The translations under genes were made by a program, and so were the position numbers. Shown here one piece after another: positions 21,757-57,097 of a stretch of 64,000 nucleotides of DNA. The first letter of the stretch is position 1. Each line of letters opens with the position of its first letter. The notes beneath the pieces are model-generated. The model had not been told where the DNA came from. It was given only the letters and a program-made list of their open reading frames with translations, and made no database searches. Source of the DNA: an uncultured Bacilli bacterium (lineage in GTDB: Bacteria > Bacillota_I > Bacilli_A > RF39 > UBA660); assembly GCA_934155185.1 (NCBI GenBank), contig CAKPGT010000003.1, positions 30,970 to 94,969 of the forward strand, in the 5' to 3' direction.

Positions 21757-23103
21757 ATGGCAGAATTAAAAGTTTTAAATCAAAAAATTTCTTATTTTAA
21801 AATAGAAGATGAAGATTATATTTCTATTACAGATATGCTTAAATCTAAAGATGGTGATTTCTTCGTATCTGATTGGTTGAGAAATAGAAATACTATCGAA
21901 TTTTTAGGTATTTGGGAAGAAATTCATAATCCTAATTTTAATTATGGCGAATTCGCCATAATTAAAAGTCAAGCAGGTTTAAATAGTTATAAAATTAGTG
22001 TTAAAGAATGGGTAGAAAAAACAAATGCAATTGGTATAATGTCAAAAGCAGGAAGATATGGTGGAACTTATGCCCATAAAGATATCGCTTTTGAATTTGG
22101 TATGTGGATTAGTCCAAAGTTTAAATTATTACTTATTAAAGAATTTGAAAGACTAAAAGCAGAAGAGCAAAAACAACTTGGCTGGAATGCAAAACGTGAA
22201 CTTTCAAAGATTAATTACAGAATACATACTGATGCAATAAAACAGAATTTAATACCTAATGAGTTAACAAAAGAACAAATTAATTATGTATATGCTGAAG
22301 AAGCTGATGTTTTAAATATGGCTCTATTTGGTATGACTGCTAAAGAATGGAGAAATAAAAATAAGAATCTAGATGGTAACATTAGAGATCATGCAACTAT
22401 AAATGAATTAATATGTTTAGCAAATTTAGAAAATCTTAATTCGGTATTTATAAATGATGGATTAAATCAATCTAAAAGACTTGTTAGACTTAATAAAATA
22501 GCAATATCTCAAATGAAAATTTTAAATGATAGCGATGTAAAGTATTTAAAAGGAGATGAAATGAATGAAAATTATGTAATAATTCATGGTAGTTTTGGTT
22601 CAAATGAAGGTAATTGGTTCCCTTGGTTAAAAGAACAGCTAGAGACAAAAGGAAAACAAGTTTTTGTTCCACAAATGCCAGTTGGTGTAGGAAATCAAAA
22701 CTTTGAAAATTGGTCTAATGTATTAAATCAATTAGATATAAATGAAAATGCAGTTATTATAGCTCATAGCATAGCACCTATATTTGTATGTAAATATCTA
22801 ATAACGAATCAGATAAAAGTAAAGAAGTTAATATTTGTATGTGGTTTTAACAATTATTTAGGGATTGATTCTGATTTTGATGCTGTTAATAAACCGATGT
22901 TTATTAATAACTATGCAGATGTAAAACTATATTGTAAAGATATAGTTTGTTATTATTCTGACAATGATCCATATGTTAAATATGATGTTGAAAAAGAATT
23001 TGCTGACAAACTTACTGATAAACAGTATGTTATAAAAAATGGTGGGCATATAAATGCAGAAACCGGTTATACAAAGTTTGAAGAAATTTTGAAGGAGATA
23101 TAA
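21757..23103 (+). CDS. KilA-N domain protein fused in frame to a YdeN/RBBP9-like alpha/beta serine hydrolase
   Basis: The N-terminal 140 aa match the KilA-N family (ISITDMLKSKDG..WLRNRNTIEFLGIWE..AGRYGGTYAHKDIAFEFGMWISP). The C-terminal 180 aa carry IIHGSFGS and AHSIAP (GxSxG-like). An internal SD AGGAG plus ATG lies at 22551/22561. Confidence 0.75.
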   Translation: MAELKVLNQKISYFKIEDEDYISITDMLKSKDGDFFVSDWLRNRNTIEFLGIWEEIHNPNFNYGEFAIIKSQAGLNSYKISVKEWVEKTNAIGIMSKAGRYGGTYAHKDIAFEFGMWISPKFKLLLIKEFERLKAEEQKQLGWNAKRELSKINYRIHTDAIKQNLIPNELTKEQINYVYAEEADVLNMALFGMTAKEWRNKNKNLDGNIRDHATINELICLANLENLNSVFINDGLNQSKRLVRLNKIAISQMKILNDSDVKYLKGDEMNENYVIIHGSFGSNEGNWFPWLKEQLETKGKQVFVPQMPVGVGNQNFENWSNVLNQLDINENAVIIAHSIAPIFVCKYLITNQIKVKKLIFVCGFNNYLGIDSDFDAVNKPMFINNYADVKLYCKDIVCYYSDNDPYVKYDVEKEFADKLTDKQYVIKNGGHINAETGYTKFEEILKEI

Positions 23104-43239: not shown

Positions 43240-45216
43240 ATGAATGAGAATAATATAGGAAACACTGATGAACTTGGCTTTGAAAATGCTAATTTGGACC
43301 AAAACATAAATGAATCTGTTCAAGGAGATGTTAATATTTTAGGCGATTCTTCAATTAATACTAATTTAGACAGCACAGTAAATGATGCTAATACGCTTTC
43401 ATTAGAAAATCAGAAGTATAATGATACTTATAATGAACCACGAACTGAGTTACTCCCAGACGAAATAGGTAGAGTAAAAGATATTAGCGGTGATAAGGTA
43501 ATAGTAGGTATTACATCTGATTTAGCATATTCTAAAAATTTAGTTGATCATCATGTAGTATTTCAAGTAGAAAATGATCAGAAAATAGTTGGAACATTAA
43601 CTAGCATAAACAAGGAAACAGCAGAGATTCAACTAATTGGTGAGATAAAAGCAGATAGGTTTATAGCAGGAGTTTTAATTAAACCTCAAATTGGTAGTGT
43701 ATGTCAAATTGCAAGTGAAAACGAAACTAGTTTAATAGTAATTGATGGTAGTAATAATTCTACAAGTAAAGTCTTAGTAGGACAAATGCCTCTTTATAAT
43801 AATGCACCAGCGTATGTACCAACTAACACATTTTTCAGTAATCACTTTGCAATTTTTGGAAATACTGGTTCAGGTAAGTCTTGCGGTGTTGCAAGATTAC
43901 TTCAAAACGTATTTTTTAATACGAATCAAATTCCAAGAAATGCATGTATGTTTATATTTGATGCTTATGGTGAATACGAAAACGCATTATCTATTCAAAA
44001 TAGTAGTATATTATTTAAAAGGTATTCTACCAACGTAAGGACTAATTCAAATACGTTAATAAAGTTGCCACTTTGGCTTCTTGATATAGATGATTTTGCG
44101 TTATTACTTGATGTTGATGACCCATCGCAACTTCCAATAATAGAAAAGGCACTTAGACTAGTTACAGTATTTTCAGGACCAGAAGAAGAAACAAAGATAT
44201 ATAAAAATGATATAATTGCTAAAGCAATACTTGAGGTTTTATATTCAGGCGGTGCGGCATCACAAATACATGACCAAATATTTGCAATATTAACATCATT
44301 TAATACATCTGATCTAAACTTAGAATCTTTAATTGTACAACCGGGATATACGAGAACATTAAGACAATGCCTAATAATTGATAAAGAAGGTAAAATAGGT
44401 GAGATACAGTTAGTATCAGAATTTATAAAGAGATTTATTAATGATAATTTAAGACTAGAATTACCTGATGGAACTATACCATTTACACTTGAAAATCTAA
44501 AAGAAGCATTTGATTTTGCTTTAATATCTGAGGGTATACTAAAGAGTGATAAAATATATGATAAAGCTAATGTTTTAAAAGTAAGATTAGATTCTCTAAT
44601 AAAGAGTGAATACTCAGAATATTTTAAAGTTGATAAATATATTGACAAAGTTAATTTTATTAAGCAACTAATTACTGCGCCTAATGGTGGAAGAACACAA
44701 ATAATAAATATAAATATTAGTTACCTAGATGATAGATTAGCTAAAACTATATGTAAAATATATTCAAAATTATTGTTTGATTTTACATCTAAACTTAGAG
44801 TAAGGGGATCGTTTCCTATTCACTTAATATTAGAAGAAGCTCATCGTTATGTACAAAATGATGATGATGTAAAAATATTTGGATATAATATATTTGATAG
44901 AATTGCAAAAGAGGGAAGAAAGTATGGTGTTATACTTGGATTAATATCACAAAGACCATCTGAATTATCTGAAACTACAATGTCTCAGTGTTCTAATTTC
45001 TTAATTTTCAAAATGCAGCATCCTTATGATGTTAAGTTTATTAGGGAAATGGTGCCTTACATAACAGACGAAATAGTTGAAAAAATGAAAGGTTTGCAGC
45101 CAGGTACTTGCGTAGCCTTTGGCTCAGCATTTAAACTTCCAACTATTATAAAATTAGAAATGCCAAATCCGCAACCAATGAGTCAAAACGTTGACATATC
45201 AAGATTGTGGTATTAA
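43240..45216 (+). CDS. HerA/DUF87-type (HerA-FtsK superfamily) ATPase with Asn/Asp-rich N-terminal tail
   Basis: Barrel-like N-domain (GRVKDISGDKVIVG...), Walker A FGNTGSGKS, Walker B/sensor HLILEEAHRY and GLISQRPSELSETTMSQCSNFLIFKM. Confidence 0.8.
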   Translation: MNENNIGNTDELGFENANLDQNINESVQGDVNILGDSSINTNLDSTVNDANTLSLENQKYNDTYNEPRTELLPDEIGRVKDISGDKVIVGITSDLAYSKNLVDHHVVFQVENDQKIVGTLTSINKETAEIQLIGEIKADRFIAGVLIKPQIGSVCQIASENETSLIVIDGSNNSTSKVLVGQMPLYNNAPAYVPTNTFFSNHFAIFGNTGSGKSCGVARLLQNVFFNTNQIPRNACMFIFDAYGEYENALSIQNSSILFKRYSTNVRTNSNTLIKLPLWLLDIDDFALLLDVDDPSQLPIIEKALRLVTVFSGPEEETKIYKNDIIAKAILEVLYSGGAASQIHDQIFAILTSFNTSDLNLESLIVQPGYTRTLRQCLIIDKEGKIGEIQLVSEFIKRFINDNLRLELPDGTIPFTLENLKEAFDFALISEGILKSDKIYDKANVLKVRLDSLIKSEYSEYFKVDKYIDKVNFIKQLITAPNGGRTQIININISYLDDRLAKTICKIYSKLLFDFTSKLRVRGSFPIHLILEEAHRYVQNDDDVKIFGYNIFDRIAKEGRKYGVILGLISQRPSELSETTMSQCSNFLIFKMQHPYDVKFIREMVPYITDEIVEKMKGLQPGTCVAFGSAFKLPTIIKLEMPNPQPMSQNVDISRLWY

Positions 45217-45235
45217 TTAAATAAAAATGTATTAT

Positions 45236-45272
45236 AAAAACCTTTTCCATAGTTAATGTGGTTAGGTTTTTT
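45236..45272 (+). terminator. probable intrinsic terminator between the HerA-like gene and the T7SS block
   Basis: AAAAACCT / AGGTTTTT outer stem plus CCATA/TGTGG inner stem, with a T-rich tail. Confidence 0.5.
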
Positions 45273-45382
45273 ATTTACGTTTTTTATTTGCAATAATTGA
45301 CTAAAGCTTGTTAAAAATGCTATTATATAGATAGTAAAAGATAGTAGATGATTCTTTTACATAGTAATGAGGAGGCATATAC

Positions 45383-45637
45383 ATGTATTCTAATAAACTT
45401 TTAATATCTGTTGAAGTGCCGTCGATAGAGCAAAATTTTAACTTATTTATTCCAATAAATAAAAAACTTGGGACTATAAAGAAGTATATTACTGATAGTA
45501 TTTTTGAACTATCAGGAAAAATACTAGAACAAAAAAAATACTCTTTTTTCGACATTGATACTGGGGTTAAATATGGAAGTAATGTATATGTAAAAGACAG
45601 CGGAATAAAAAACGGGGCAAGAATAATTATGATTTAA
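45383..45637 (+). CDS. esaB: YukD/EsaB-like ubiquitin-fold T7SS protein
   Basis: 84 aa with a pattern of alternating beta-strand residues, ending NGARIIMI. SD GAGGAGG upstream. Immediately precedes the WXG100 genes. Confidence 0.7.
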   Translation: MYSNKLLISVEVPSIEQNFNLFIPINKKLGTIKKYITDSIFELSGKILEQKKYSFFDIDTGVKYGSNVYVKDSGIKNGARIIMI

Positions 45638-45650
45638 GGAGGTGAAAAAA

Positions 45651-45932
45651 ATGGCAGATTTAAAAATTAATTATGCTAATACAAGAAGTGCAGGTAACAC
45701 TGTTAAACAAAAATCATCAGAGTTTTCTGATTTATTAAAGGCAATTCATGAACAAAATGAAGAATTAAAATCTCACTGGCAAGGTGCTGATGCGGATAGC
45801 TATACAAAAAAAATATCAGAACAAGAACAAGTTATGAAAAACCTAAAATCAGCAATGGATGAAATGGGTGAGTATTTAGTTAAAGTTGCTAATGCTTATG
45901 AAGAAGCAATGGAAAGTAACAAAATAAATTAA
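45651..45932 (+). CDS. esxA: WXG100-family protein (EsxA-like)
   Basis: 93-aa helical hairpin with a central W-x-G (SHWQGADADSY). SD AGGAGGTGA precedes ATG 45651. Confidence 0.85.
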   Translation: MADLKINYANTRSAGNTVKQKSSEFSDLLKAIHEQNEELKSHWQGADADSYTKKISEQEQVMKNLKSAMDEMGEYLVKVANAYEEAMESNKIN

Positions 45933-45953
45933 TATTGATAAGGAGGATTACAT

Positions 45954-46247
45954 ATGGGAACAGAATTTTCTGGTTTATCATACGCGCAAATAAGAGGGAT
46001 AGCTGCAACTTTGAAGTCAAAAGCTACCTCTATGCAAGGAATACTAAATGAAGTTAAAACAGAGTTTGATAAAATAGGTGGAGATGACACTTGGAGTGGA
46101 ACATCTGCAGGAGCAGCAAAAGAACAATTTGATGCACTTTCAGCAAAATTTCCAGAATTTTATGAAGCAATAACTTCTTGCTCTCAGTATCTTGAGAGAG
46201 TAGTTCAAAGCTATGAAGCTGTTGATGCTAAAATTAAAGGAATATAG
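45954..46247 (+). CDS. WXG100-family protein (second paralogue)
   Basis: 97 aa with a central W-x-G (DDTWSGTSAGAA). SD AGGAGG upstream. Confidence 0.85.
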   Translation: MGTEFSGLSYAQIRGIAATLKSKATSMQGILNEVKTEFDKIGGDDTWSGTSAGAAKEQFDALSAKFPEFYEAITSCSQYLERVVQSYEAVDAKIKGI

Positions 46248-46334
46248 TTATTAGAGCACTAAAGCTCTTTGACAAAAAAGTGTTATTAAAATAGCATTTT
46301 TTTGTGAAACAGATTTAGAAAGGCAAGATGATAC

Positions 46335-46619
46335 ATGAAGATAAAGGCTTCAAGTGAACTGGTAAAAAGTGCAAGTTTAATTAATGATCGTTTTAGTGAA
46401 ATATATAAGAGTATTGATACGATTCAGAACTATATTGGGCAGACAAATAAGGTTTGGAAAGGAACAGACGCTGATTCTTTTACAAAGAAATATAATGAAG
46501 AAGTAATACCTAATTTAAGAAAATTTAAAAGTTCTATGGAAAAATATGTGACGTTTTTGTCAAAGGTTTATCCTGTTTATAAAGCACTGGACGAATATTA
46601 TGACAAACCCATAAATTGA
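46335..46619 (+). CDS. WXG100-like small helical protein (possible LXG-effector targeting factor)
   Basis: 94 aa with a central VWKGTDADSF. Confidence 0.6.
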   Translation: MKIKASSELVKSASLINDRFSEIYKSIDTIQNYIGQTNKVWKGTDADSFTKKYNEEVIPNLRKFKSSMEKYVTFLSKVYPVYKALDEYYDKPIN

Positions 46620-46633
46620 TTGGAGTGATTATT

Positions 46634-46921
46634 ATGTATGCAAATTATGATGGAATGAATGAGCTACGTGAACGTTTAGACTCTGAAATAGATAAGATGG
46701 TTAAAAATATGAAAGATGCTAAAGATTTAGTTTCAAAGCTTGATAATAATGATTACTGGGATGGGAATGGATTTAACAGTTATAATGAAAAATTTAATAA
46801 ACTAGCTATGAATTTTAATTCATTTTGTAATGATATCCAAAAGCTTAATAATAACATCAAAGTTGCAATTTCAAATTATCAGGAAATAGATAAAAAAGTT
46901 GAAGGAAGCATAGGTACATAA
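46634..46921 (+). CDS. WXG100-like small helical protein
   Basis: 95 aa from ATG 46634, after SD TGGAGTGA. Central YWDGNGFNSY. Confidence 0.6.
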   Translation: MYANYDGMNELRERLDSEIDKMVKNMKDAKDLVSKLDNNDYWDGNGFNSYNEKFNKLAMNFNSFCNDIQKLNNNIKVAISNYQEIDKKVEGSIGT

Positions 46922-46923
46922 TT

Positions 46924-47352
46924 ATGGCATATGAAAATATAGATGTTAATAAGTTGAAAACTGCACTAAGTACAATAAATAATATTAATAATTCAAAGAT
47001 AGACAACTTAGTACAAAAAATGGACTCGGAGCAGTGGCAAAGTCCTGTAAGAAGCAGACTTCAAACTGCACTTTCAAACATATCAAAGCAATATGCAAGT
47101 TTAAAAAAAGATATAGATACTTATAAAGAAATTGCAAATCATATTGAAAAATATAATCGTGCTAAAAGCGATTATGATAGATTAAATGACGATGTGAATT
47201 ATTACAATAATAAATTAAATAGTTTAGATGAAAATTCTAGCTTTTATGAATATAATAAAAGTTATTTTAAGTCGAAGCTAGATAATAATGTTTTGGCTAG
47301 AAATAATGCTAGAGCTAGTATGAATGAAATAGAAAAAAAGATTAATTTGTGA
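46924..47352 (+). CDS. small helical protein with a degenerate WxG-like turn
   Basis: 142 aa with EQWQSPVRSR at the turn position. Coiled-coil-like composition. Tightly packed with its neighbours. Confidence 0.45.
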   Translation: MAYENIDVNKLKTALSTINNINNSKIDNLVQKMDSEQWQSPVRSRLQTALSNISKQYASLKKDIDTYKEIANHIEKYNRAKSDYDRLNDDVNYYNNKLNSLDENSSFYEYNKSYFKSKLDNNVLARNNARASMNEIEKKINL

Positions 47353-47362
47353 GGAGAAAAAG

Positions 47363-47671
47363 ATGAATAATAATGTTAATTTAGGAAAATATTTGCCAAT
47401 AGGAACTGTAGTTCTTTTGAGAGGTGGAAAAAAAAGACTTATGATTACGGGCTTTTGTTCTTTAGCTGAGAATGATAGTTCAAAATTATACGATTATAGT
47501 GGTTGTTTATATCCAGAAGGAGTAATTGAAAGTAAAAGCATGGCTTTGTTTAATCATAATCAAATAGAAAAAATATTCTATTTAGGATACTCTGATTTAG
47601 AAGAAAAAAACTTTAAGAAGGAATTAGTTACAGAGGTTGCAAAACTAGTTCAAGATCAAGAAAATAACTAA
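47363..47671 (+). CDS. DUF4176-family protein (T7SSb effector chaperone-like)
   Basis: LPIGTVVLLRGGKKRLMITGF ... YDYSGCLYPEG ... FNHNQIEKIFYLGY matches the DUF4176 pattern. Confidence 0.75.
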   Translation: MNNNVNLGKYLPIGTVVLLRGGKKRLMITGFCSLAENDSSKLYDYSGCLYPEGVIESKSMALFNHNQIEKIFYLGYSDLEEKNFKKELVTEVAKLVQDQENN

Positions 47672-47704
47672 GAATATAAATAATAACAAGGAGGTGAAAT
47701 TTTT

Positions 47705-50700
47705 ATGGGACTGTATAATTTAACTAGAATAGAGGGATGGTACGAAGATTTCACCGACTTAAAAAATCGATTTAACAATGACTATTATCAAGATTTTAAG
47801 AGTAGTTATTTAAGAAAGTGCCCTAATCAATTAGTGTCAAAAATGTATTTAAATTTGCAAGAAAAGTATTTTAAAATACGTGAATTGTATAAAAAAGTTG
47901 ATACAGTTTGGAGTGAATATATAGTTGATTTAGAAAACACAGATAATAGATTAGCTGGGCAAAGTGGAAGTGTTAGTGCGTCAACTGTATCGTCATTATT
48001 GTCTAAAATGCCACAACTAAATGATACTCAGTATAGCTTATCTAATTCTGGAGGCCAAAGCAAAAACGCAGTACTTGAAATTGGGGAAAAAATTCTTTCA
48101 ACGGGTGCTGTTGTTACAACTACCGTGTATAGTGGTTTATTTAAATTAAGAGAAAAATTTCAAGATGGTGCATTATGGCTTGTAGCAACTGTTACTGCTC
48201 CGGTTGTTTCATTGTTTAATAAAGAAGCTGGGGAAAAATATAAAGAAGCAATGATGGATGCAATTGCTGTAGATAGGGTTGCAGAGGCAAATAAATATTT
48301 TTATGAAAATACTAAAGTTGGAAAATACATTAATGAAAAATCTTACTTAAAGTATGATAGTGAATTTGCAAAGAAAATGCAAAATTATTCAGAAAAAGGC
48401 TTTGAAATTGCAGCAGCAACTGCATTAACCGTAGCAACTGGTGGACTTGCTGCACCTGTATCTGCTCTACTGGTTGTGGGTACTGGCTTTGCTATTGGAG
48501 CAGGTGAAAAAGCAGAGGAAAATTATCAGCAAGAAGATAGAAGTTTTTATGGGGACGCTGGTGAAATTGCATTTGCAGGTTTAATCAAAGGAATTGAATT
48601 CTATGGCACTGGAAAGACGGGACAGGGAATTATTACTGCAGCCAAAGCAGTTGCAAGTTCTGGAGGTATAAAATCTATATCTACGGTTGCAAAACAATTA
48701 TTTACTAAAAGTGGAAATAAAAAAATCACTATGAAATCACTATTTAAAAAAGCGTCAGAAACGTTAAAAACAGCTTTATCAGATGTGGATACACATATGG
48801 ATTCGCTTAGCGCAGCAGCGGATAATATAACTTATAGTAAAGAAGAGGGTATAAAGGTTAATTGGAAAGGTTTTGCAAAAAAAACTGTTAAATATTTCAT
48901 TGCCAATTGTTGTTCAGCATTTGTTAGCAATCTATATGCACCACCAAAGACAAAAGCAGATAATGGTATAGAGAAATTTAAAGGTACAAAAAGTACATCA
49001 GCTGACGATTTAGAATCATTAAAAAAAGAATATAATGAGTTACTAGCCAAATCAAAAGAAAAATGGTTTATAGATGCAAAAGATGCTATGGATAATGGCT
49101 ATGCTTGGAAGTTAGATGATATTAAATCAGCAGATGATATTGCAAAAAGAATGAATGAAATAGAAAAGGCCCTTGGCATAGATAGCCCAAAAGTTAATGT
49201 AAAAGGAATAGAATCAGGAAGTACTCATAAATCTGATTTAGAACAACTAAAAAAAGAATATAATGAGTTATTAGCTAAGTCAAAAGAAAATTGGTTTATA
49301 GATGCAAAGAATGCTATGGATAATGGCTATGCTTGGAAATTAGATGATATTAAATCAGCAGATGACATCTCAAAAAGAATGGATGAAATAGAAAGAATTT
49401 TGTATAGTGATTCAAAAAATTTGACTAGTTCAGCTTACCCTGAAGCATTTAGTAGAAAATCATTAAGTAATATGACAAATTATGAGGTACATAAGTCATT
49501 AAGTGACATGGATATTGTTATTAAAAATATAGAGTCAAAATATCCGGGTGAGGGAGTACGTCGCTTAGAAGAATATTTAAAAACTGGTAATATAAATATG
49601 ATTACATCTCTTGGTGGTTCTAGAAACTATGTAGCTCAATTTGAACCTGATTTTATTGAATATTATCTTAAAAAAAGATATAATATTGATGTAAAAGTTA
49701 GTTCATCATTCTATGATTTAAATCAAACAGTACGTAGTGGTACATTAAAAAGTAGTAGTAATGAAGAATTATATAGTTTCTTTTCAAATAACGGAAGTTC
49801 ATTAAATGAAACATATGGTGCTGATCAAGGTGGAATAGATAAGCTATGTGATTATTATTTAAATGGAACAAGGTATTCTTGCTCTGAAGCCAAGGAGATA
49901 GCGAATTCGTATAAAGAGAGAGGATTGCCTTTACCAAAATTTAAAAAAGAGGCTGCAGTAGAAGAATACTTTACATTAAAAAATAAGTTAGTTTCAAAGG
50001 GATTAACTAGTGCTCAAGCCTCTGTTATATTATCAAGTTTTGATGATGTTGGCGCGTGTACTTATGCTGGAAAAGCTAATTCAATCTTTTTTAAGTTTTC
50101 AGATAATCCAGAACTATTTGAGAAAAAATTTGGCTTTCCAATGTATAAAATAGATAGTAATGGGCGTAAGGTTCTTAATTCAAATGAACTTTTATTAGAT
50201 ATGTATATGCATATAAATGATATATCGAATGGTGGAATGTTATTTACGAAAGTTAACGATTCATATGTTTTAAATTGCAGTGATAAAATTGATGTATTTG
50301 GCAGAAAAATGCTTGATACCGAGCATCAGGTTTATCTTTCTAATTTTGGCGGTTCAAATGACTATGCTTTAAATAATTATTTAAAATCTAAAAATTTAAA
50401 GTGGGATTCTTATAATTTGATTTCAAATCCTTCTGGTAAAAAATTAAACACGTCGGAATTAGTTGACTACGTTAATGCAATCTCTTCCAGTATTGAAGAT
50501 GGAAAGGCAGTACAAATGAACATCTTCTCTTCTGACAATAATATTACCATGCATTCAACAAATCCGGGTTCCTATAGTAGTAAATCAACAGATTCATGGA
50601 TAAAAGAAATAGTAAATGAAAATGGCAAAATTGAAAAGAAACACAGTGGTCATGCAGTAATGATTACCGGAATAAAAAATGATGGTTTTACAGTTAGTTC

Positions 50701-50797
50701 TTGGGGTCAGGAATATAAGATTTTGTATAATGATTTAATAAATGGAGGAGAATTTAACATAACAATAGATAATGTTATTGATCCTGTAGTTAGTTAG
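47705..50797 (+). CDS. large putative T7SS substrate/toxin with C-terminal Cys-His (papain-fold-like) domain
   Basis: Occupies the position of an LXG-type effector. Helical N-terminus, Gly/Ala-rich hydrophobic core and 2 x 76-aa repeat. C-terminal GACTYAG ... HSGHAVMITG ... SSWGQEY. Confidence 0.55.
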   Translation: MGLYNLTRIEGWYEDFTDLKNRFNNDYYQDFKSSYLRKCPNQLVSKMYLNLQEKYFKIRELYKKVDTVWSEYIVDLENTDNRLAGQSGSVSASTVSSLLSKMPQLNDTQYSLSNSGGQSKNAVLEIGEKILSTGAVVTTTVYSGLFKLREKFQDGALWLVATVTAPVVSLFNKEAGEKYKEAMMDAIAVDRVAEANKYFYENTKVGKYINEKSYLKYDSEFAKKMQNYSEKGFEIAAATALTVATGGLAAPVSALLVVGTGFAIGAGEKAEENYQQEDRSFYGDAGEIAFAGLIKGIEFYGTGKTGQGIITAAKAVASSGGIKSISTVAKQLFTKSGNKKITMKSLFKKASETLKTALSDVDTHMDSLSAAADNITYSKEEGIKVNWKGFAKKTVKYFIANCCSAFVSNLYAPPKTKADNGIEKFKGTKSTSADDLESLKKEYNELLAKSKEKWFIDAKDAMDNGYAWKLDDIKSADDIAKRMNEIEKALGIDSPKVNVKGIESGSTHKSDLEQLKKEYNELLAKSKENWFIDAKNAMDNGYAWKLDDIKSADDISKRMDEIERILYSDSKNLTSSAYPEAFSRKSLSNMTNYEVHKSLSDMDIVIKNIESKYPGEGVRRLEEYLKTGNINMITSLGGSRNYVAQFEPDFIEYYLKKRYNIDVKVSSSFYDLNQTVRSGTLKSSSNEELYSFFSNNGSSLNETYGADQGGIDKLCDYYLNGTRYSCSEAKEIANSYKERGLPLPKFKKEAAVEEYFTLKNKLVSKGLTSAQASVILSSFDDVGACTYAGKANSIFFKFSDNPELFEKKFGFPMYKIDSNGRKVLNSNELLLDMYMHINDISNGGMLFTKVNDSYVLNCSDKIDVFGRKMLDTEHQVYLSNFGGSNDYALNNYLKSKNLKWDSYNLISNPSGKKLNTSELVDYVNAISSSIEDGKAVQMNIFSSDNNITMHSTNPGSYSSKSTDSWIKEIVNENGKIEKKHSGHAVMITGIKNDGFTVSSWGQEYKILYNDLINGGEFNITIDNVIDPVVS
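49010..49402 (+). repeat. in-frame tandem duplication (228-bp period, about 1.7 copies) inside the effector gene
   Basis: LESLKKEYNELLAKSKEKWFIDAKDAMDNGYAWKLDDIKSADDIAKRMNEIEKAL versus LEQLKKEYNELLAKSKENWFIDAKNAMDNGYAWKLDDIKSADDISKRMDEIERIL. Unit starts are at 49010 and 49238. Confidence 0.9.
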
Positions 50798-50805
50798 GAG
50801 GTATT

Positions 50806-51363
50806 ATGAGAGAAATTGATAATTATAAGTATATGTTTTTTAAAGAAGTGTATAACACTATAAATCTTAAAAGTGTGGAACAGAAAATGTTAGGTGATAA
50901 TATAAAGCCACTTGAAGTAATAAAAGATGATAAATATGATGTAATTTCAAACTACTTTTTCTTGCTAAATGTTTTTAACATTGAGGCCTTGTCTAAGGAA
51001 CAGTTACAAGATTTTTATACGTACTTTTCTAAAGATATTAATTCTTTAAATGAACAAGAACTCCAAAAAACAAGAGAATTTATAAATGAAACTTATTCTA
51101 CGGTATTGTTTCCTAAGACTGATAGTAAATACGTATATTATGGTCCAATTAATGATGACTATTTATGCCCAAGAGATGCTATTGTAATAGGATTATACTA
51201 TGATGCTTTTGGGGAATATGGCGATTTTGAACTAGAAAATAAACTAGCAGATATTATTAATTATATTCAGTTCTCATTGGATAAAAAGAATTATAGTAAA
51301 ATTGCTGTTATACCATTTAATCAAATTACATTAGAAAATAGAATTAGTAGTTTAAATAAATAG
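50806..51363 (+). CDS. hypothetical protein; candidate cognate immunity protein
   Basis: 185 aa with no TM segment. Starts 9 nt after the effector stop and has its own SD (AGGAGG). Confidence 0.4.
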   Translation: MREIDNYKYMFFKEVYNTINLKSVEQKMLGDNIKPLEVIKDDKYDVISNYFFLLNVFNIEALSKEQLQDFYTYFSKDINSLNEQELQKTREFINETYSTVLFPKTDSKYVYYGPINDDYLCPRDAIVIGLYYDAFGEYGDFELENKLADIINYIQFSLDKKNYSKIAVIPFNQITLENRISSLNK

Positions 51364-51383
51364 CATTATAAGGAGTGAATAAA

Positions 51384-54300
51384 ATGAGGGTTTCATTAAT
51401 AAAAAAAGATAGAATAAGGCATGTTAACATACCAGATGTACCATCTGGTAACTTTTGGGTTACTGACTATGACGAAAACGGTAAAGAAGTTAATTTACTA
51501 AACATAAAGTCAGAAAATGGCAAGTGGAAATTAATTAGTAATTCAGAGTTTTACTGCTTACTAAACAATAACTATGTTGATAGTTTAGATTTAAAAAATT
51601 ATTGTTTTTATTCTATAAGAAAAGCTTCAAGTGATGAAACAATGCTAATATATTCATCTAGTTCATGCGATAGTAAAAAGGTTGAATACCTAATTAATCA
51701 AAATAATAATCCTTTAATTTCAATTGGTAGTGCTGTTAACTGTAATATTTCATTTCCATTCTTAGATGAGGTTACAGCTAATCTTATGTTTGAAAGAGGA
51801 AAGTATGTCTTACAAGTAATGTCTCCTAAAGTTGGGGTATATATAAATAATTTAAGAGTATATGATAAAAAGGTACTAGAATATGGCGATATATTATTTT
51901 TAAACGGATTAAAAATAGTATTTATGAAATGTGAGGGCAATGATAGATTAATAATATATTATTTCGGGAATAATTTAATTGTAAATGGACTTGCTAGTTC
52001 TACATATGATGATTACGAAGAACCTTTTGAAGAAGCTAAAGAAGATTTGGATATTAAATGGTACAAAGATGAAGACTTTTTTCACAAAACTCCAAGATTT
52101 GTATCTGAAATAAAAGAAAAAGAAATTAAAATAGATGTTCCTCCATCAAAGGAAGAGCAAAATGATATGCCCGTGATATTAACAATAGGGCCAATGCTTA
52201 CTATGAGTATGTCGTCTATGGTTATGGCATTTACATCAATAAGTAATGCAAGAAGTAATGGTGGTTCGTTAGCTTCTGCGATTCCATCTATTGTAATGTC
52301 TTTAGCTATGGTTGCATCTGTATTGCTATGGCCATCTTTAACAAGAAAATTTGAAGATAAAAGAAGACAAAAAAAGGAAAAAGAAAGAATAGATAAGTAT
52401 TCCAAATATATAGATTCTAGAAGAAAGATGATACTAGATGAGCTTGAAAGTCAAACTAAGTCTTTAAAAGGTAATTATCCAAGTCTTTTAGAATGTAATA
52501 GAATAATTTTAAACAAGGAGCCTGTTTTATGGCAAAGAAAAATTGAAGATGAAGATTTCTTAAAAGTTAGTTTAGGGTATGGAAGCTACGATATGAAGCT
52601 TAAAATTTCTTATCCAGAAGAACAGTTTTCAATGATAGAAGATGAGCTTAAGGATTTGGCTGATAAGTTAAGCAGGGAGCCAAAAGTTTTGCAAAATGTT
52701 CCGATTCCTTATTCTTTTTTAGAAAATAATATCTCTGCTATTGTAGGACAATATAATGATAGAAGTGAGTACTTAAAAAAGATATTATTTCAAATAATTA
52801 CGTTTCATAGCTATGTTGATTTGAAAATAGTTATTTTAACAGATAATGATAAAAAAAGTACATGGGAGAATATAAAGAATTTACCATATTGCTTTACGGA
52901 TGATAGAAGTCTTAGATTATTTGCTTCAAAAAATGAAGAGTATAGCATTGTATGTTCTTATCTTGAAAAAATATTTAGTTTAAGAAAGGAAGCTAGTAAA
53001 ACTGATGTTAATCCTCATATATACGATAAAATATATTTAATTATTACTGATTCATTTAAATCAGTAAGGAATCAAGACTTTATAGATAATCTTTTAAAGG
53101 AAAAGAATAATTATGGATTTAGTTTTATTGTTTCAAATGGTAAAATATCAACTCTTCCAGAACAGTGCAAGACATTTATAAATGTCGGATTAAATGGTGG
53201 ATATTTGTCTAAAAATATTGTAAATTCACAGAATCAAAATTTTATAACAGATTTAAATAGTGGAATAAACTACAATGAATGTTACAAAATACTTTGTAAC
53301 ATACCAATTGAAACAAATGATTCATCATCTTCTAAAATACCAGATAAAGTTGGATTTTTGGAGATGTATGATGTTGGTAAAGTAGAACAACTAAATTCAT
53401 CTAACAGATGGGAAAAGAGTAATCCAATGAATACTTTATCAGCACCTGTTGGTTATGGAAAAAACAGTGAAATCCAGTATATTGACTTACATGAAAAGTA
53501 TCATGGTCCGCATGGTTTAATAGCAGGTATGACAGGTTCTGGTAAATCAGAATTTATAATTACTTATATACTATCTTTAGCAGTTAATTATAGTCCACTT
53601 GAAGTTCAATTTATATTAATAGACTATAAAGGCGGTGGACTTGCTGGAGCATTTGAAAACTCTAACTCCGGAAAGAAATTACCTCACTTAGTAGGTACTA
53701 TTACTAACTTAGATGCGAGTGAAATTAAAAGAAGTATTTCTAGTATAGAAAGTGAGCTTAAAAGAAGGCAGCGTTTGTTTAATATAGCTAGGGATAAGAC
53801 AGGCGAAAGTACAGTTGATATATATAAATATCAGCGATTTTATAGAGAAGGTAGGGTTGATGAACCGGTATCTCATTTATTTATAATATCTGATGAGTTC
53901 GCTGAGTTAAAAAATCAACAACCTGAATTCATGGATCAGCTTATATCTACGGCACGTATAGGACGTTCATTAGGTGTGCATTTAATTTTAGCAACACAAA
54001 AGCCAAGTGGTGTAGTAGACCCTCAAATATGGTCAAATACAAGGTTTAGAGTTTGCTTAAGAGTTCAAGATAAGAGTGATTCTAATGAAGTAATTAAATG
54101 CCCAGATGCTGCATTTTTAAAACAAACAGGTAGATTTTACTTTCAAGTTGGTTATAATGAAGTATTTACTTTAGGACAAGCTGCTTGGGCAGGAGAAAAA
54201 TATGTACCAAAAGAAAAAACCAAAAAACCAGTAGATACGACAATAAAGTTTATTAATAATGTTGGTTATGTAATAAAAAAGGTAGCAACTAGAAAAATTC

Positions 54301-56039
54301 AAACTAATCAAGATGAAAAGAAATATGGGGAAGAATTATTAAATGTTGTAAATTATTTATCTGATATTGCTACAGAATTAAAAATAAAGGCAAAGCCATT
54401 GTGGCTTGATAAGATTCCAAGTTTTATTAAGATAAGAGATTTAATTAAAAAGTATGATTATAAATCTAATGTTCCAATAATTGATATACCTGTAGGTGAA
54501 TTTGATATACCTCAGCAGCAAAGACAAAGTATACTTACAGTTCCTATAAGTAATGGTGGAAACGTTTTACTATATGGAACTACCGGTTCTGGTAAAGAAA
54601 ACTTTATTATGACACTTATATATTCTTCAATGCTATTATATACACCAGAAGAGATTAATTTTTATATAATGGATTTTGGTGCAGAGGTACTTAAAGTATT
54701 TAAAGACTCACATTATGTCGGTGATATAGTTCAAATTGATGAAGAGGAAAAAATTAAGAATCTATATAAGTTAATAAATAATATGATAGATGAAAGAAAG
54801 GAGATGCTTTCATCTTATGGTGGAAGTTTCTTAAGTTACTTAAAAAATGGTGGTAAAAAGTTGCCAAGTATTGTAGTAGTTCTTAATAATTATGAAGCTT
54901 ATTATGATACTTACGAAGAACTTGATGATACGTTTAATATACTAACTAGAGAATGTGCTAAGTATGGTATATATTTCATAATTACTTTAAATACTCCTAA
55001 TGGAATGCGCTTTAAATTACGTCAGAACTTTTCACAAATATACTGTTTGCAACAAAATAATGAGGATGATTACATAAGTATTCTTGGTAATACTGGAAAA
55101 AGTTACCCATCTAAATTATTTGGTAGAGGTATAATTAAAAGAGATAATGTATATGAATTTCAAACAGCTTCTATAGATGTTCAAGAGAAATTAAATGAAA
55201 GTATACAACTTGAAATATCAAACTCAAATAATAAAACTAATTTTGTTGCTAAAAAGATACCTATACTTCCTAAGGTTGTAGATTATGAATATATTAAAGA
55301 TAGTATAGACTATAATGATGAAGAAGTTATAATTGGTGTTGAAAAACAAAGCTTAGAAGTTTGCAAGTATAATTTTAGAAGAGATTTAATAAACGTAATT
55401 TCTGCTAATGATAGTGATATGATGTCTGATTTTGTTAATTCTTTCATAAATCAAATTAAAATAAATAAGAAATTCCAGACTATGGTTATTGATGCTTCAG
55501 AATTAAGAATTGATGATGATACTAAAGAGAAAGTTGCTTATGAGGAAAATAATTACAATGAGGTATTTGAAAGAATATTAAAGTATGAGAATGATTGCTA
55601 TGATGTATATAGAAATAATAATTATAATAATTTAATATTCCGTAATCAAAAACCACTTATTGTAGTTATAAACGGTATAGATAGTTTTGTTTCTAAATTA
55701 TCTGATGAAAATAAACTAAACGTATCTGACTTCTTTACAAAAGCAAAAGATTTAAACATAATTAATTTTGTTTTAATAGATAGTGTAAGCGGTATAAAGA
55801 AAGTTGAGTACGAATCATGGTTTAAGGAAGGGTTTAATCCTAATGATGGTATATTTATTGGTGATGGTATAAATGACCAATATACAATGAAAGTATCTGT
55901 TAGAACACAAGAAATAAAGGAAACTATAAGTGATGATTTTTGCTTTGTACTATTAAGGGGTAAACCAGTACTTGTTAAGTACATTAGTAGTTTTAATCCT
56001 ATTTTAGATGATATGATAGAGATTCCTAGTGAAAAGTAA
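51384..56039 (+). CDS. essC: T7SS FtsK/SpoIIIE-family ATPase EssC/YukBA
   Basis: FHA-like N-terminal modules and two TM helices (MPVILTIGPMLTMSM.., IPSIVMSLAMVASVLLW). ATPase modules have P-loops GMTGSGKSEF and GTTGSGKENF, with Walker B IISDEF. The third module lacks a P-loop. Start is ATG 51384, after SD AAGGAG. Confidence 0.9.
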   Translation: MRVSLIKKDRIRHVNIPDVPSGNFWVTDYDENGKEVNLLNIKSENGKWKLISNSEFYCLLNNNYVDSLDLKNYCFYSIRKASSDETMLIYSSSSCDSKKVEYLINQNNNPLISIGSAVNCNISFPFLDEVTANLMFERGKYVLQVMSPKVGVYINNLRVYDKKVLEYGDILFLNGLKIVFMKCEGNDRLIIYYFGNNLIVNGLASSTYDDYEEPFEEAKEDLDIKWYKDEDFFHKTPRFVSEIKEKEIKIDVPPSKEEQNDMPVILTIGPMLTMSMSSMVMAFTSISNARSNGGSLASAIPSIVMSLAMVASVLLWPSLTRKFEDKRRQKKEKERIDKYSKYIDSRRKMILDELESQTKSLKGNYPSLLECNRIILNKEPVLWQRKIEDEDFLKVSLGYGSYDMKLKISYPEEQFSMIEDELKDLADKLSREPKVLQNVPIPYSFLENNISAIVGQYNDRSEYLKKILFQIITFHSYVDLKIVILTDNDKKSTWENIKNLPYCFTDDRSLRLFASKNEEYSIVCSYLEKIFSLRKEASKTDVNPHIYDKIYLIITDSFKSVRNQDFIDNLLKEKNNYGFSFIVSNGKISTLPEQCKTFINVGLNGGYLSKNIVNSQNQNFITDLNSGINYNECYKILCNIPIETNDSSSSKIPDKVGFLEMYDVGKVEQLNSSNRWEKSNPMNTLSAPVGYGKNSEIQYIDLHEKYHGPHGLIAGMTGSGKSEFIITYILSLAVNYSPLEVQFILIDYKGGGLAGAFENSNSGKKLPHLVGTITNLDASEIKRSISSIESELKRRQRLFNIARDKTGESTVDIYKYQRFYREGRVDEPVSHLFIISDEFAELKNQQPEFMDQLISTARIGRSLGVHLILATQKPSGVVDPQIWSNTRFRVCLRVQDKSDSNEVIKCPDAAFLKQTGRFYFQVGYNEVFTLGQAAWAGEKYVPKEKTKKPVDTTIKFINNVGYVIKKVATRKIQTNQDEKKYGEELLNVVNYLSDIATELKIKAKPLWLDKIPSFIKIRDLIKKYDYKSNVPIIDIPVGEFDIPQQQRQSILTVPISNGGNVLLYGTTGSGKENFIMTLIYSSMLLYTPEEINFYIMDFGAEVLKVFKDSHYVGDIVQIDEEEKIKNLYKLINNMIDERKEMLSSYGGSFLSYLKNGGKKLPSIVVVLNNYEAYYDTYEELDDTFNILTRECAKYGIYFIITLNTPNGMRFKLRQNFSQIYCLQQNNEDDYISILGNTGKSYPSKLFGRGIIKRDNVYEFQTASIDVQEKLNESIQLEISNSNNKTNFVAKKIPILPKVVDYEYIKDSIDYNDEEVIIGVEKQSLEVCKYNFRRDLINVISANDSDMMSDFVNSFINQIKINKKFQTMVIDASELRIDDDTKEKVAYEENNYNEVFERILKYENDCYDVYRNNNYNNLIFRNQKPLIVVINGIDSFVSKLSDENKLNVSDFFTKAKDLNIINFVLIDSVSGIKKVEYESWFKEGFNPNDGIFIGDGINDQYTMKVSVRTQEIKETISDDFCFVLLRGKPVLVKYISSFNPILDDMIEIPSEK

Positions 56040-56115
56040 AGGCTTATTTTGTCTTTACTTTTTACTTTAATCATTTAATTTATTATGATAAAATATAAAT
56101 ATAACAGGAGGAATT

Positions 56116-56574
56116 ATGAAAGAGCAAACTAAAAAGAAAATACTTTTAATAATATTATGCACGTTAACACTTTTGGTTTTATATGTAGCTATAAGACTAA
56201 ACTCAAATAGAAAGCATAGTTTATTGTTAAATTCGGATATTAAAGGATACTTAAGTGAGATAAAGTATGAAGAAATAGAATCTCATGTAAAGGAAAGGCC
56301 TAATGTAATCATATATGTTTCAAATAGCAGTCAAAATGAGTCAATTAAGTTTGAAAGAATGTTTAAAGATATAATTAAAAAATATAATTTAGAAAATGAA
56401 GTAATCTACATAAATATAAATGAAACAACAATTATTGATCCGATATATCAAAATGCCCCAGAACTTGTATTTTATAAAGATGGTACAATTAGTGATATTA
56501 TTGATTGCAGTACATTAAAAAGCAAGAAAAGTATTATAAATGAGTTAAAAGAAAGAAGTGTTATAGATGATTAA
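56116..56574 (+). CDS. N-terminally anchored membrane protein, possibly a thioredoxin-like fold without CxxC
   Basis: One TM helix (ILLIILCTLTLLVLYVAI) followed by an alpha/beta-like ~110 aa. The stop overlaps the trmL start. Confidence 0.4.
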   Translation: MKEQTKKKILLIILCTLTLLVLYVAIRLNSNRKHSLLLNSDIKGYLSEIKYEEIESHVKERPNVIIYVSNSSQNESIKFERMFKDIIKKYNLENEVIYININETTIIDPIYQNAPELVFYKDGTISDIIDCSTLKSKKSIINELKERSVIDD

Positions 56575-57097
56575 TGTTGTATTATATGAACCAGAAATAC
56601 CTGGAAATACAGGCAATATTATGCGTACATGTGCAGCTACAGATACGCATCTTCATTTAATTAAACCACTTGGTTTTTCATTAGACGAAAGCTATATTAA
56701 AAGAAGCGGGGCTAACTATATTAATGATTGTAATTATACTTTGTATGAAAACTGGGATGACTTTAAAAGCAAAAATAAAGGAACATATTATTACTTAACA
56801 AGATATGGTAAAAAAGCACATACTTCTTTTGATTATAGTAATAAGGATGAAAATATCTATCTTGTATTTGGGAGGGAAAGTAGTGGATTACCTCTTGAAA
56901 TATTAAAAGATGATTTAGATCATTGCCTTAGAATTCCTATGACAAATAAAGTAAGAGCACTTAATTTATCTAATTGTGCTGCTATTATGGTTTATGAGGT
57001 ACTAAGACAACAAGATTATAGAGATTTATTAAGAAAAGAACCATTTAAGGGTGAAGACTATATAGAAACAGGTATAGATATTAGTAAGCAAGACTAA
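56567..57097 (+). CDS. trmL: tRNA (cytidine/uridine(34)-2'-O)-methyltransferase TrmL (SpoU family)
   Basis: VVLYEPEIPGNTGNIMRTC, LVFGRESSGLP and NLSNCAAIMVYE SPOUT motifs. Confidence 0.9.
   Translation: MINVVLYEPEIPGNTGNIMRTCAATDTHLHLIKPLGFSLDESYIKRSGANYINDCNYTLYENWDDFKSKNKGTYYYLTRYGKKAHTSFDYSNKDENIYLVFGRESSGLPLEILKDDLDHCLRIPMTNKVRALNLSNCAAIMVYEVLRQQDYRDLLRKEPFKGEDYIETGIDISKQD

Follow-up and report, generated by a model that had tools for sequence, protein, structure and literature searches.

We analysed a 64,000-nucleotide stretch of DNA from an uncultured Bacilli bacterium (contig CAKPGT010000003.1 of assembly GCA_934155185.1), referred to below as the window, with a focus on a gene whose 1030-amino-acid (aa) product had been proposed, in a first-pass annotation made from the sequence alone, to be an effector of a secretion system of type VII (T7SS) with a papain-fold-like C-terminal domain. 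The open reading frame (ORF) and its position after WxG-like and DUF4176 genes were confirmed by clear matches to DUF4176, WXG100 and EssC. It belongs to a tight block of genes on the same strand, in the order DUF87/HerA-like ATPase, 84-aa protein, two WXG100 proteins, two WXG-like proteins, 142-aa helical protein, DUF4176 protein, toxin, 185-aa ORF, EssC, DUF6568 protein and SpoU. The genes closest to the toxin gene are the following.

45642..46247, + strand: two WXG100 (EsxA-like) genes (Pfam WXG100, E-values 3.4e-12 and 3.8e-13)
46335..47352, + strand: three small helical proteins (94, 95/101 and 142 aa) with weak WXG100 matches (1e-5 and 6.8e-3) and conserved synteny
47363..47671, + strand: small DUF4176 protein of 102 aa (Pfam PF13780, 3.2e-26), directly upstream of the toxin gene
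47705..50797, + strand: whole toxin gene, ATG start, 1030 aa (from the ORF call and translation, and the cassette architecture)
50806..51363, + strand: 185-aa cognate immunity candidate, soluble, with a homologue downstream of the toxin domain elsewhere and swapped together with the toxin C-terminus
51375..56039, + strand: EssC, membrane ATPase of the T7SS (TIGR03928, 1025 bits; cut-off 778)

The toxin gene is preceded by a strong Shine-Dalgarno sequence, AAGGAGGTG, upstream of its ATG. Shine-Dalgarno sites are also present in the short gaps around it, which measure 33 nt between the DUF4176 and toxin genes, 8 nt between the toxin gene and the 185-aa ORF, and 11 nt between this ORF and the EssC gene. 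Public data from three sources (3-4 contigs of up to 140 kb) contain an identical 1030-aa protein. The protein itself was divided into the following parts.

47705..48994, + strand: N-terminal delivery module, residues 1-430, all-helical, with 35-47% identity to the homologues P0002-P0011, which have other C-termini
48407..48505, + strand: hydrophobic Gly/Ala-rich segment IAAATALTVATGGLAAPVSALLVVGTGFAIGAG, residues 235-267 (Kyte-Doolittle scan)
49004..49459, + strand: two tandem 76-aa repeats, residues 434-509 and 510-585, forming the linker between carrier and toxin
49565..50794, + strand: swappable toxin module, residues 621-1030, a helical pre-domain followed by a predicted papain-fold Cys/His core at 744-1030 (from homology limits, AlphaFold2 and Foldseek)

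We compared the window with syntenic loci on three contigs (L081, L082 and L083) that have the same gene order. Identity to the window was 87-90% for SpoU, 74-76% for the DUF87 ATPase, 70-72% for EssC, 64-69% for the DUF4176 protein, 47-66% for the WXG100 pair, 29-52% for the small partner proteins and 35-44% for toxin residues 1-430. Joint retention of toxin residues 621-1030 (53%) and of the small protein encoded downstream (64%) was seen only in L082; in L081 and L083 the toxin C-terminus and the downstream gene were both exchanged for unrelated sequences, the downstream ORFs there encoding 161 and 97 aa. Such joint swapping of a C-terminus and its downstream gene is what defines a toxin-immunity cassette. 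The same modularity was seen among the whole-protein homologues P0002-P0011, which share only residues 1 to about 520, P0002 being the sole one that also matches residues 621-1024, while elsewhere the same N-terminal module ends in ADP-ribosyltransferase (PF03496) or TNT (PF14021) domains. These findings, together with the place of the gene in the operon, support the earlier suggestion that it occupies the polymorphic-toxin slot of a T7SS, and indicate that the gene and its downstream neighbour are a real T7SS toxin-immunity pair of the polymorphic-toxin type. Two of the exchanged C-termini have no Pfam match: that of P0004 (L081, 8001-11339) contains an HExxH-type sequence, SHENIHQ, and that of P0011 (L083, 8001-10760) a transglutaminase- or papain-like Cys...His...Asp pattern (CSNWS ... 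GSHKWV ... YYMADAT). Both may represent further unnamed toxin families.

To define the family of the toxin module, we ran an exhaustive HMMER search with residues 580-1030 as the query against representatives at 50% identity. This search identified 610 representatives at E <= 1e-3 (122 of them at E <= 1e-30), and a genome scan gave 127 relatives of the domain. No Pfam or NCBIfam model scored above threshold for the family defined by residues 621-1030, for which there is also no solved structure, and a Pfam scan of 42 full-length carriers matched almost nothing. The closer relatives came from gut metagenome-assembled genomes of rabbit, ruminant and human samples that carry the labels Bacilli, Tenericutes or Erysipelotrichaceae. 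Members of a distant subfamily, at 25-30% identity, were found in Streptococcus sanguinis, Listeria portnoyi, Enterococcus larvae, Butyrivibrio, Pseudobutyrivibrio and others. The proteins of this subfamily are 360-520 aa long; several carry a Pfam LXG domain (1.9e-10, 7.1e-12 and 4e-5) and two are named "T7SS effector LXG polymorphic toxin" by NCBI. The distant relatives in S. sanguinis and L. portnoyi are bona fide LXG toxins; WP_149565576.1 of S. sanguinis S28 and WP_187133042.1 of L. portnoyi are LXG versions of this kind. Profile-profile alignment with hhalign showed the close and distant subfamilies to be homologous (99.9%, E-value 9e-35). The domain was also carried by contigs binned as Muribaculaceae, Bacteroidaceae or Methanobrevibacter (L010, L011, L020, L023, L024 and L030), several of which have EssC or DUF4176 homologues as well; these are probably mis-binned Bacillota contigs and not cross-phylum transfers.

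Conservation within the family was assessed in 143 aligned members and in a 27-sequence set made up of the query and 26 members of the distant subfamily. All three motifs singled out in the first-pass annotation, DDVGACTYAGK (Cys785), HSGHAVMITG (His983) and VSSWGQEY (Ser998-Gly1001), were present, and they are listed here with a fourth motif that lies upstream of them.

49814..49828, + strand: YGADQ motif, residues 704-708 (Y704 in 24/27, G705 in 25/27 and Q708 in 26/27; G and Q invariant in alignment A1)
50057..50059, + strand: Cys785 codon, predicted nucleophile, invariant in 143/143 and 27/27 (model residue 165, start of helix 164-177)
50651..50653, + strand: His983 codon, predicted general base, invariant in 143/143 and 27/27 (model residue 363, start of strand 362-370)
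50696..50707, + strand: S998-S999-W1000-G1001, counterpart of the papain N-S-W-G, on the strand after His (model residues 374-379)

Among the 143 members, G783, C785, N825, D832, N838, H983 and G1001 were invariant, and the SSWG positions were conserved at 96% (S998), 90% (S999), 92% (W1000) and 100% (G1001). In the 27-sequence set the invariant residues were C785, H983, N792, N825, D832, W1000 and G1001; the SSWG positions were kept in 26-27 of the 27 sequences, one distant member having Asp at 998. Since Cys785 and His983 are invariant in both sets, the motifs are not chance occurrences. Both subfamilies share C785, H983, N792, N825, D832, SSWG and the motif YG[GAV][DN]Q, which sits 40-80 residues before the predicted catalytic Cys and, in the LXG proteins, lies where the toxin domain begins. 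By homology, the toxin module is larger than the C-terminal region of about 280 aa described earlier, with a core at 744-1030, YGxDQ at 704-708 and a swapped cassette that begins near residue 621.

The domain was C-terminal in 131 of 151 proteins (the match ending <=25 residues from the C-terminus), and about 20 of the 151 carry it internally. Unusual architectures were noted in P0018, P0131, P0043 and P0058: P0018, a 5914-aa protein, contains five copies of the Cys/His domain, another protein has two, and two carriers also have dockerin domains. Some family members may be processing peptidases or parts of non-T7SS giant toxins. The YGADQ motif is a candidate for either an oxyanion-hole Gln or a processing site; C39 peptidases cut after Gly-Gly, which is our ground for the latter idea. 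Applied to the protein studied here, this line of thought would give the Cys/His domain chiefly a role in self-processing or maturation, as a peptidase, or make it a surface enzyme without toxicity, with a downstream gene that does not encode immunity. The internal and five-copy members fit such a role, as would the conserved upstream YGxDQ(G) if it were a cleavage site, and dual toxin and processing roles have been given to Tox-PL1 and PLOTU (PMC3482391). In the window, however, the domain sits at the very C-terminus and nothing else in the protein is a catalytic candidate; in relatives ADP-ribosyltransferase, TNT and other modules take its place at the same position, a specific small ORF being swapped along with it, and an ORF of the 185-aa type follows the domain in 27 loci. 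We therefore regard a purely processing or non-toxic role as very improbable.

An AlphaFold2 model of residues 621-1030, built from a 37-sequence alignment, had a mean predicted local distance difference test (pLDDT) score of 92.1 and a predicted template modelling (TM) score of 0.84. In the model, as in clan CA cysteine peptidases, Cys785 stands at the N-terminus of a helix and His983 lies downstream on a strand; about 200 residues separate the two, including a beta-rich insert. The His-to-Trp spacing in the toxin is 17, almost the same as the 18 between His159 and Trp177 of papain, placing Ser998 at the position of papain Asn175. Asp1010 was considered as a third catalytic residue and ruled out for its lack of conservation in the distant subfamily. 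With Foldseek, the best match of the model was the C39-like peptidase 3erv (E-value 5.2e-3, probability 0.96, target-normalised TM-score 0.43), followed by CtaG (0.85), the PCAT1 C39 domain (0.63), a Josephin deubiquitinase (0.57) and PeiR (0.30). The second library, BFVD, returned a phage "Peptidase C1A papain" domain with probability 0.93 and a phage "Peptidase" with 0.75. All matches of meaningful probability in the two libraries (PDB and BFVD) were papain-fold enzymes; galectin, carbohydrate-binding module and capsid matches had probabilities below 0.2 and were taken as noise from the beta-rich insert. The Foldseek check proposed in the first-pass annotation thus returned papain-fold matches at probabilities of up to 0.96 and 0.93 in the two libraries and nothing at E <= 1e-3. 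Peptidase_C39_2 was the only recurrent Pfam signal, with 14.7 bits (E-value 0.047) for the query, matches in 4 of 37 members (best E-value 0.013), and 21.6 bits (3.5e-4) for a Butyrivibrio relative.

Compared with Peptidase_C39_2 (PF13529, PDB 3erv) and C1 papain, the modelled domain is alike in having Cys at a helix N-terminus, His on a strand and S-W-G about 17 residues further on; it differs in its sub-threshold scores, a TM-score of at most 0.43, a large insertion and Ser in place of Asn175. The lines are independent and each is modest, and together they leave the assignment of residues 621-1030 to a papain fold, remote from every solved structure, well supported as a prediction. The Cys/His enzyme proposed earlier is likewise supported, as a predicted activity, by the invariance of the two residues, the model topology, Foldseek, the sub-threshold Peptidase_C39_2 signal and a distance from His to SWG like that in papain.

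What reaction such an enzyme would perform is a separate matter. Papain-fold non-proteases include the Tox-PL1 deamidases and the amide-forming CtaG, and with the same delivery and fold the domain might be a glutamine deamidase, a transglutaminase, or an acyl/amide transferase or hydrolase acting on a protein or a small molecule. CtaG was the second-best credible Foldseek match and PeiR, a transglutaminase-like isopeptidase, also appeared; Ser in place of Asn/Asp and the extra conserved polar residues (Q708, N792, N825 and D832) suggest an atypical active site, and Zhang et al. allow either peptidase or transglutaminase activity for papain-fold toxins (PMC3482391). Against this, the best Foldseek matches are peptidases (C39-like and C1A), His and SWG are spaced as in peptidases of family C1, and no sequence similarity of the domain to Pfam Tox-PL or transglutaminase families was detected. 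A non-proteolytic reaction is on balance unlikely.

The site of action was considered from the immunity candidate. Directly 3′ of the toxin domain, 27 other related loci encode a homologue of the 185-aa protein, whose similarity broadly declines along with that of the toxin. No Pfam or PDB relative of the 185-aa protein was found. It has neither a signal peptide nor a hydrophobic or transmembrane-like segment (maximum of the 19-aa Kyte-Doolittle window, KD19, 0.98). Immunity proteins to T7SS toxins that act extracellularly are membrane-anchored or exported (TelC/TipC). A soluble immunity protein thus suggests that the toxin would act in the cytoplasm. The competing idea is a cell-wall amidase or endopeptidase of the NlpC/P60, CHAP or C39 kind that acts outside the target membrane on peptidoglycan stem peptides or lipid II. 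Many papain-fold enzymes are peptidoglycan hydrolases, a phage "lysozyme" and PeiR were among the weaker Foldseek matches, and some carriers have a dockerin or surface-type architecture. Yet the downstream protein lacks both features that would place it outside the cytoplasm, and a DUF4176 chaperone with a hydrophobic middle segment is linked to cytoplasm-acting toxins (PMC12478183), so that we hold a cell-wall target to be quite improbable.

We next consider the carrier. The helical module of residues 1-430 is common to many further carriers of this toxin domain. Its model suggests a helix-turn-helix (residues 6-32 and 42-83) followed by long helices that include the hydrophobic segment, and a conserved L83-A84-G85 closes helix 42-83 (model pLDDT 54). 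Foldseek with this model returned only noise (best E-value 0.69). A Pfam scan of the full protein gave two chance-level matches (E-values 0.031 and 0.079) and NCBIfam none. The first-pass annotation had been unable to confirm an LXG motif, and our searches bear this out: Pfam LXG (PF04740) had no match at E <= 0.1 in this protein, 17 relatives of the module showed no LXG at E <= 1 and nothing consistent, and hhalign of the module against 26 LXG-type N-termini of the distant relatives gave a probability of 0.6%. Carriers that escape domain detection by scoring under its thresholds are already known for the T7SS (PMC13483458).

The hydrophobic Gly/Ala stretch reported earlier is real and is the only such segment: residues 235-267 contain the only 19-aa window of the toxin with a Kyte-Doolittle value >= 1.4 (mean/maximum 1.92), and the segment is kept in the alignment of the N-terminal module. 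A PT-TG pre-toxin domain was considered for this Gly/Ala region and set aside, having no Pfam match in the toxin or in the relatives of its N-terminal module. The segment may be a membrane-insertion or translocation element and a binding site for the DUF4176 chaperone. The pair of 76-aa repeats also stood up to analysis, with a period of 76 aa (228 nt) and a conserved core of about 56-60 aa, identical at 48/56 positions; the DNA of the two copies is 91% identical over 160 nt (49007-49166 against 49235-49394). The repeat was found with a direct-repeat finder and by protein self-comparison, and was missed by Tandem Repeats Finder. The unit is single-copy in P0002-P0005 and P0011 and duplicated only in this protein, which therefore looks like the result of a recent in-frame tandem duplication. 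The duplication lengthens the spacer between carrier and toxin.

Set against known systems, the locus resembles those of LXG toxins of the T7SSb type (TelA and TelB of Streptococcus intermedius and EsaD of S. aureus) in having WXG100-like and DUF4176 genes upstream and an immunity gene downstream, in its modular build of N-terminal carrier, middle region and C-terminal toxin, and in that distant family members are LXG proteins. It differs in that no LXG is detectable here, the carrier being a different helical module of about 430 aa without a family name. DUF4176 (Ltc) proteins are toxin-specific chaperones; in LXG toxins that act in the cytoplasm, they bind a middle domain that is hydrophobic and disordered (PMC12478183). 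The present system is similar to Ltc-dependent toxins in the DUF4176 gene immediately upstream and in the hydrophobic residues 235-267 and low-pLDDT residues 308-430 of the toxin; LtcA and LtcB, however, are "large" (200-250 aa), whereas the protein here is "small" with 102 aa, a class that rarely adjoins LXG toxin genes (PMC12478183).

Among polymorphic toxins, papain-like domains have been recognised as a class by bioinformatics (Tox-PL1/2/3, Tox-PLC39, PLOTU and TGase; Zhang et al. 2012, PMC3482391), and are possibly peptidases or transglutaminases; Tox-PLC39 has been tied to the type II and type VI secretion systems (T2SS and T6SS) and to Photorhabdus virulence cassettes (PVC), not to the T7SS (PMC3482391). 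Our toxin shares with the Tox-PL1, PL2, PL3 and PLC39 families a C-terminal domain of predicted papain fold with dedicated immunity, Tox-PL1 also being associated with T7SS (WXG) carriers. It departs from them in its motifs, YGxDQ ... GAC[ST]YA ... GH ... SSWG, and the Pfam families Tox-PL1, PL2 and PLDMTX had no match at E <= 10 in 37 members. Cpe1, EvpQ and TsaP are C39-like papain-like cysteine protease toxins of the T6SS and of contact-dependent inhibition (CDI) in Gram-negatives; the substrates of Cpe1 are GyrB and ParE, which it cuts at a Gly-Gly site, and the toxin is paired with a cognate immunity protein (PMC12136450). These three toxins are like our protein in having a C-terminal, C39-resembling Cys/His toxin domain, a small cognate immunity protein and cytoplasmic action (predicted here), and unlike it in that no sequence homology is detectable and the match to the PCAT1 C39 domain is weak (0.63). 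By analogy, we consider them the closest functional counterparts of the predicted toxin. When we searched the literature for LXG or T7SS together with papain, cysteine protease, C39 or peptidase, no characterised papain-fold toxin of the T7SSb emerged, and in the literature searched neither a thiol peptidase nor a thiol-modifying enzyme appeared among T7SSb toxins; the earlier remark that such an activity is not among the well-characterised ones is consistent with this, papain-like toxins being known from elsewhere (PMC3482391, PMC12136450).

Taken together, we assign a probability of roughly 75% to the reading in which the adjacent T7SS exports the 1030-aa protein as a polymorphic antibacterial toxin, with a divergent papain-fold thiol enzyme as its warhead and the 185-aa protein as its immunity. 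The helical N-terminal region of about 430 aa, together with the small WXG-like partners, would form the export signal read by EssC. In the producer, the DUF4176 chaperone would shield the hydrophobic segment 235-267, which might later aid the crossing of the target-cell membrane. In the predicted active site, Cys785 would be the nucleophile and His983 the base, with Ser998 in the place of papain Asn175, and the oxyanion hole may be formed by Gln708 or by the Asn/Asp just before the Cys. The toxin domain would most likely cleave, or modify in a thiol-dependent manner, an essential protein in the target cytoplasm, and in the producer the 185-aa protein would bind and neutralise it.

Several results weigh against this reading. 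On the side of delivery, the N-terminus is not detectably recognisable from its sequence as either LXG or WXG, the AlphaFold2 model of this module is helical but poor (pLDDT 54, low at 308-430), and EssA, EssB and EsaA were found nowhere in the 64-kb window, so a working T7SSb is assumed. On the side of the enzyme, the third residue of clan CA (Asn/Asp after His) is replaced by Ser998, which is Ser in 96% of the 143 members, though a different residue might fill this function; Foldseek returned nothing at E <= 1e-3 in PDB or BFVD and target-normalised TM-scores of at most 0.43; the Peptidase_C39_2 scores (14.7 and 21.6) all lie below the Pfam gathering threshold of 24 bits; and sequence searches of all PDB chains at E <= 10, with the protein and two family profiles, gave chance matches only (e.g., ribosomal protein eS17, E-value 0.95). 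Finally, because some members are internal, multi-copy in giant proteins or dockerin-linked, not every member of the family need be a T7SS toxin.

The secretion locus itself is compact and syntenic across four related contigs (window 43240-57097, L081, L082 and L083). In all four, EssC carries FHA; DUF4176 homologues occur in 24 related loci and EssC homologues in 25. The three small helical proteins at 46335..47352 are putative Lap-like targeting partners. Both small WXG-like proteins (46335-46921) end in YxxxD/E-type motifs, YKALDE and YQEID, which resemble those of T7SS export signals and Lap targeting factors. The DUF6568 gene encodes a PedC-like membrane protein of 152 aa. A survey of T7SS variants c-j (Garrett et al. 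2024, PMC11217815) does not mention a HerA/DUF87 component, and for this reason an assignment of the locus to one of these variants was dropped. The locus may be an undescribed minimal T7SS arrangement of uncultured low-GC Bacilli. The remainder of the window, which has a G+C content of 27%, consists of housekeeping genes; the composition scan showed no break at the toxin and no signal of a cassette boundary, and promoter-like sites were no commoner than in shuffled sequence. Amid the housekeeping genes, an unusual fusion was observed at 21757-23103, a 448-aa protein with KilA-N and serine-hydrolase domains.

A broader proposal would join these elements into an unnamed, widespread papain-fold branch, defined by Cys-His, Ser at the third position and a Gln-bearing YGxDQ 40-80 residues upstream, carried on a non-LXG module and exported by a compact T7SS with a HerA-like ATPase and without EssA, EssB and EsaA; we put this forward tentatively, as a possibility that we would not at present favour.

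To date, characterisation of T7SSb toxins has revealed nucleases, NADases, lipases, membrane-depolarising proteins and a lipid II phosphatase. The warhead described here is an unnamed, widespread family of predicted papain fold with its own immunity family and a non-LXG carrier, while papain-like toxins exist in other systems. With 610 clusters at 50% identity the family is large; it is spread through gut Bacillota and includes LXG toxins of S. sanguinis, L. portnoyi and E. larvae. C785 and H983 are defined as its catalytic candidates, and a candidate cognate immunity gene is defined as well. The toxin would, if the reading is true, be the first thiol-enzyme toxin for the T7SS. Its substrate could reveal a new essential Gram-positive target, as Cpe1 did with GyrB and ParE in Gram-negatives, and the non-LXG carrier and the "small" DUF4176 beside the toxin gene are relevant to the recognition and chaperoning of T7SS substrates.

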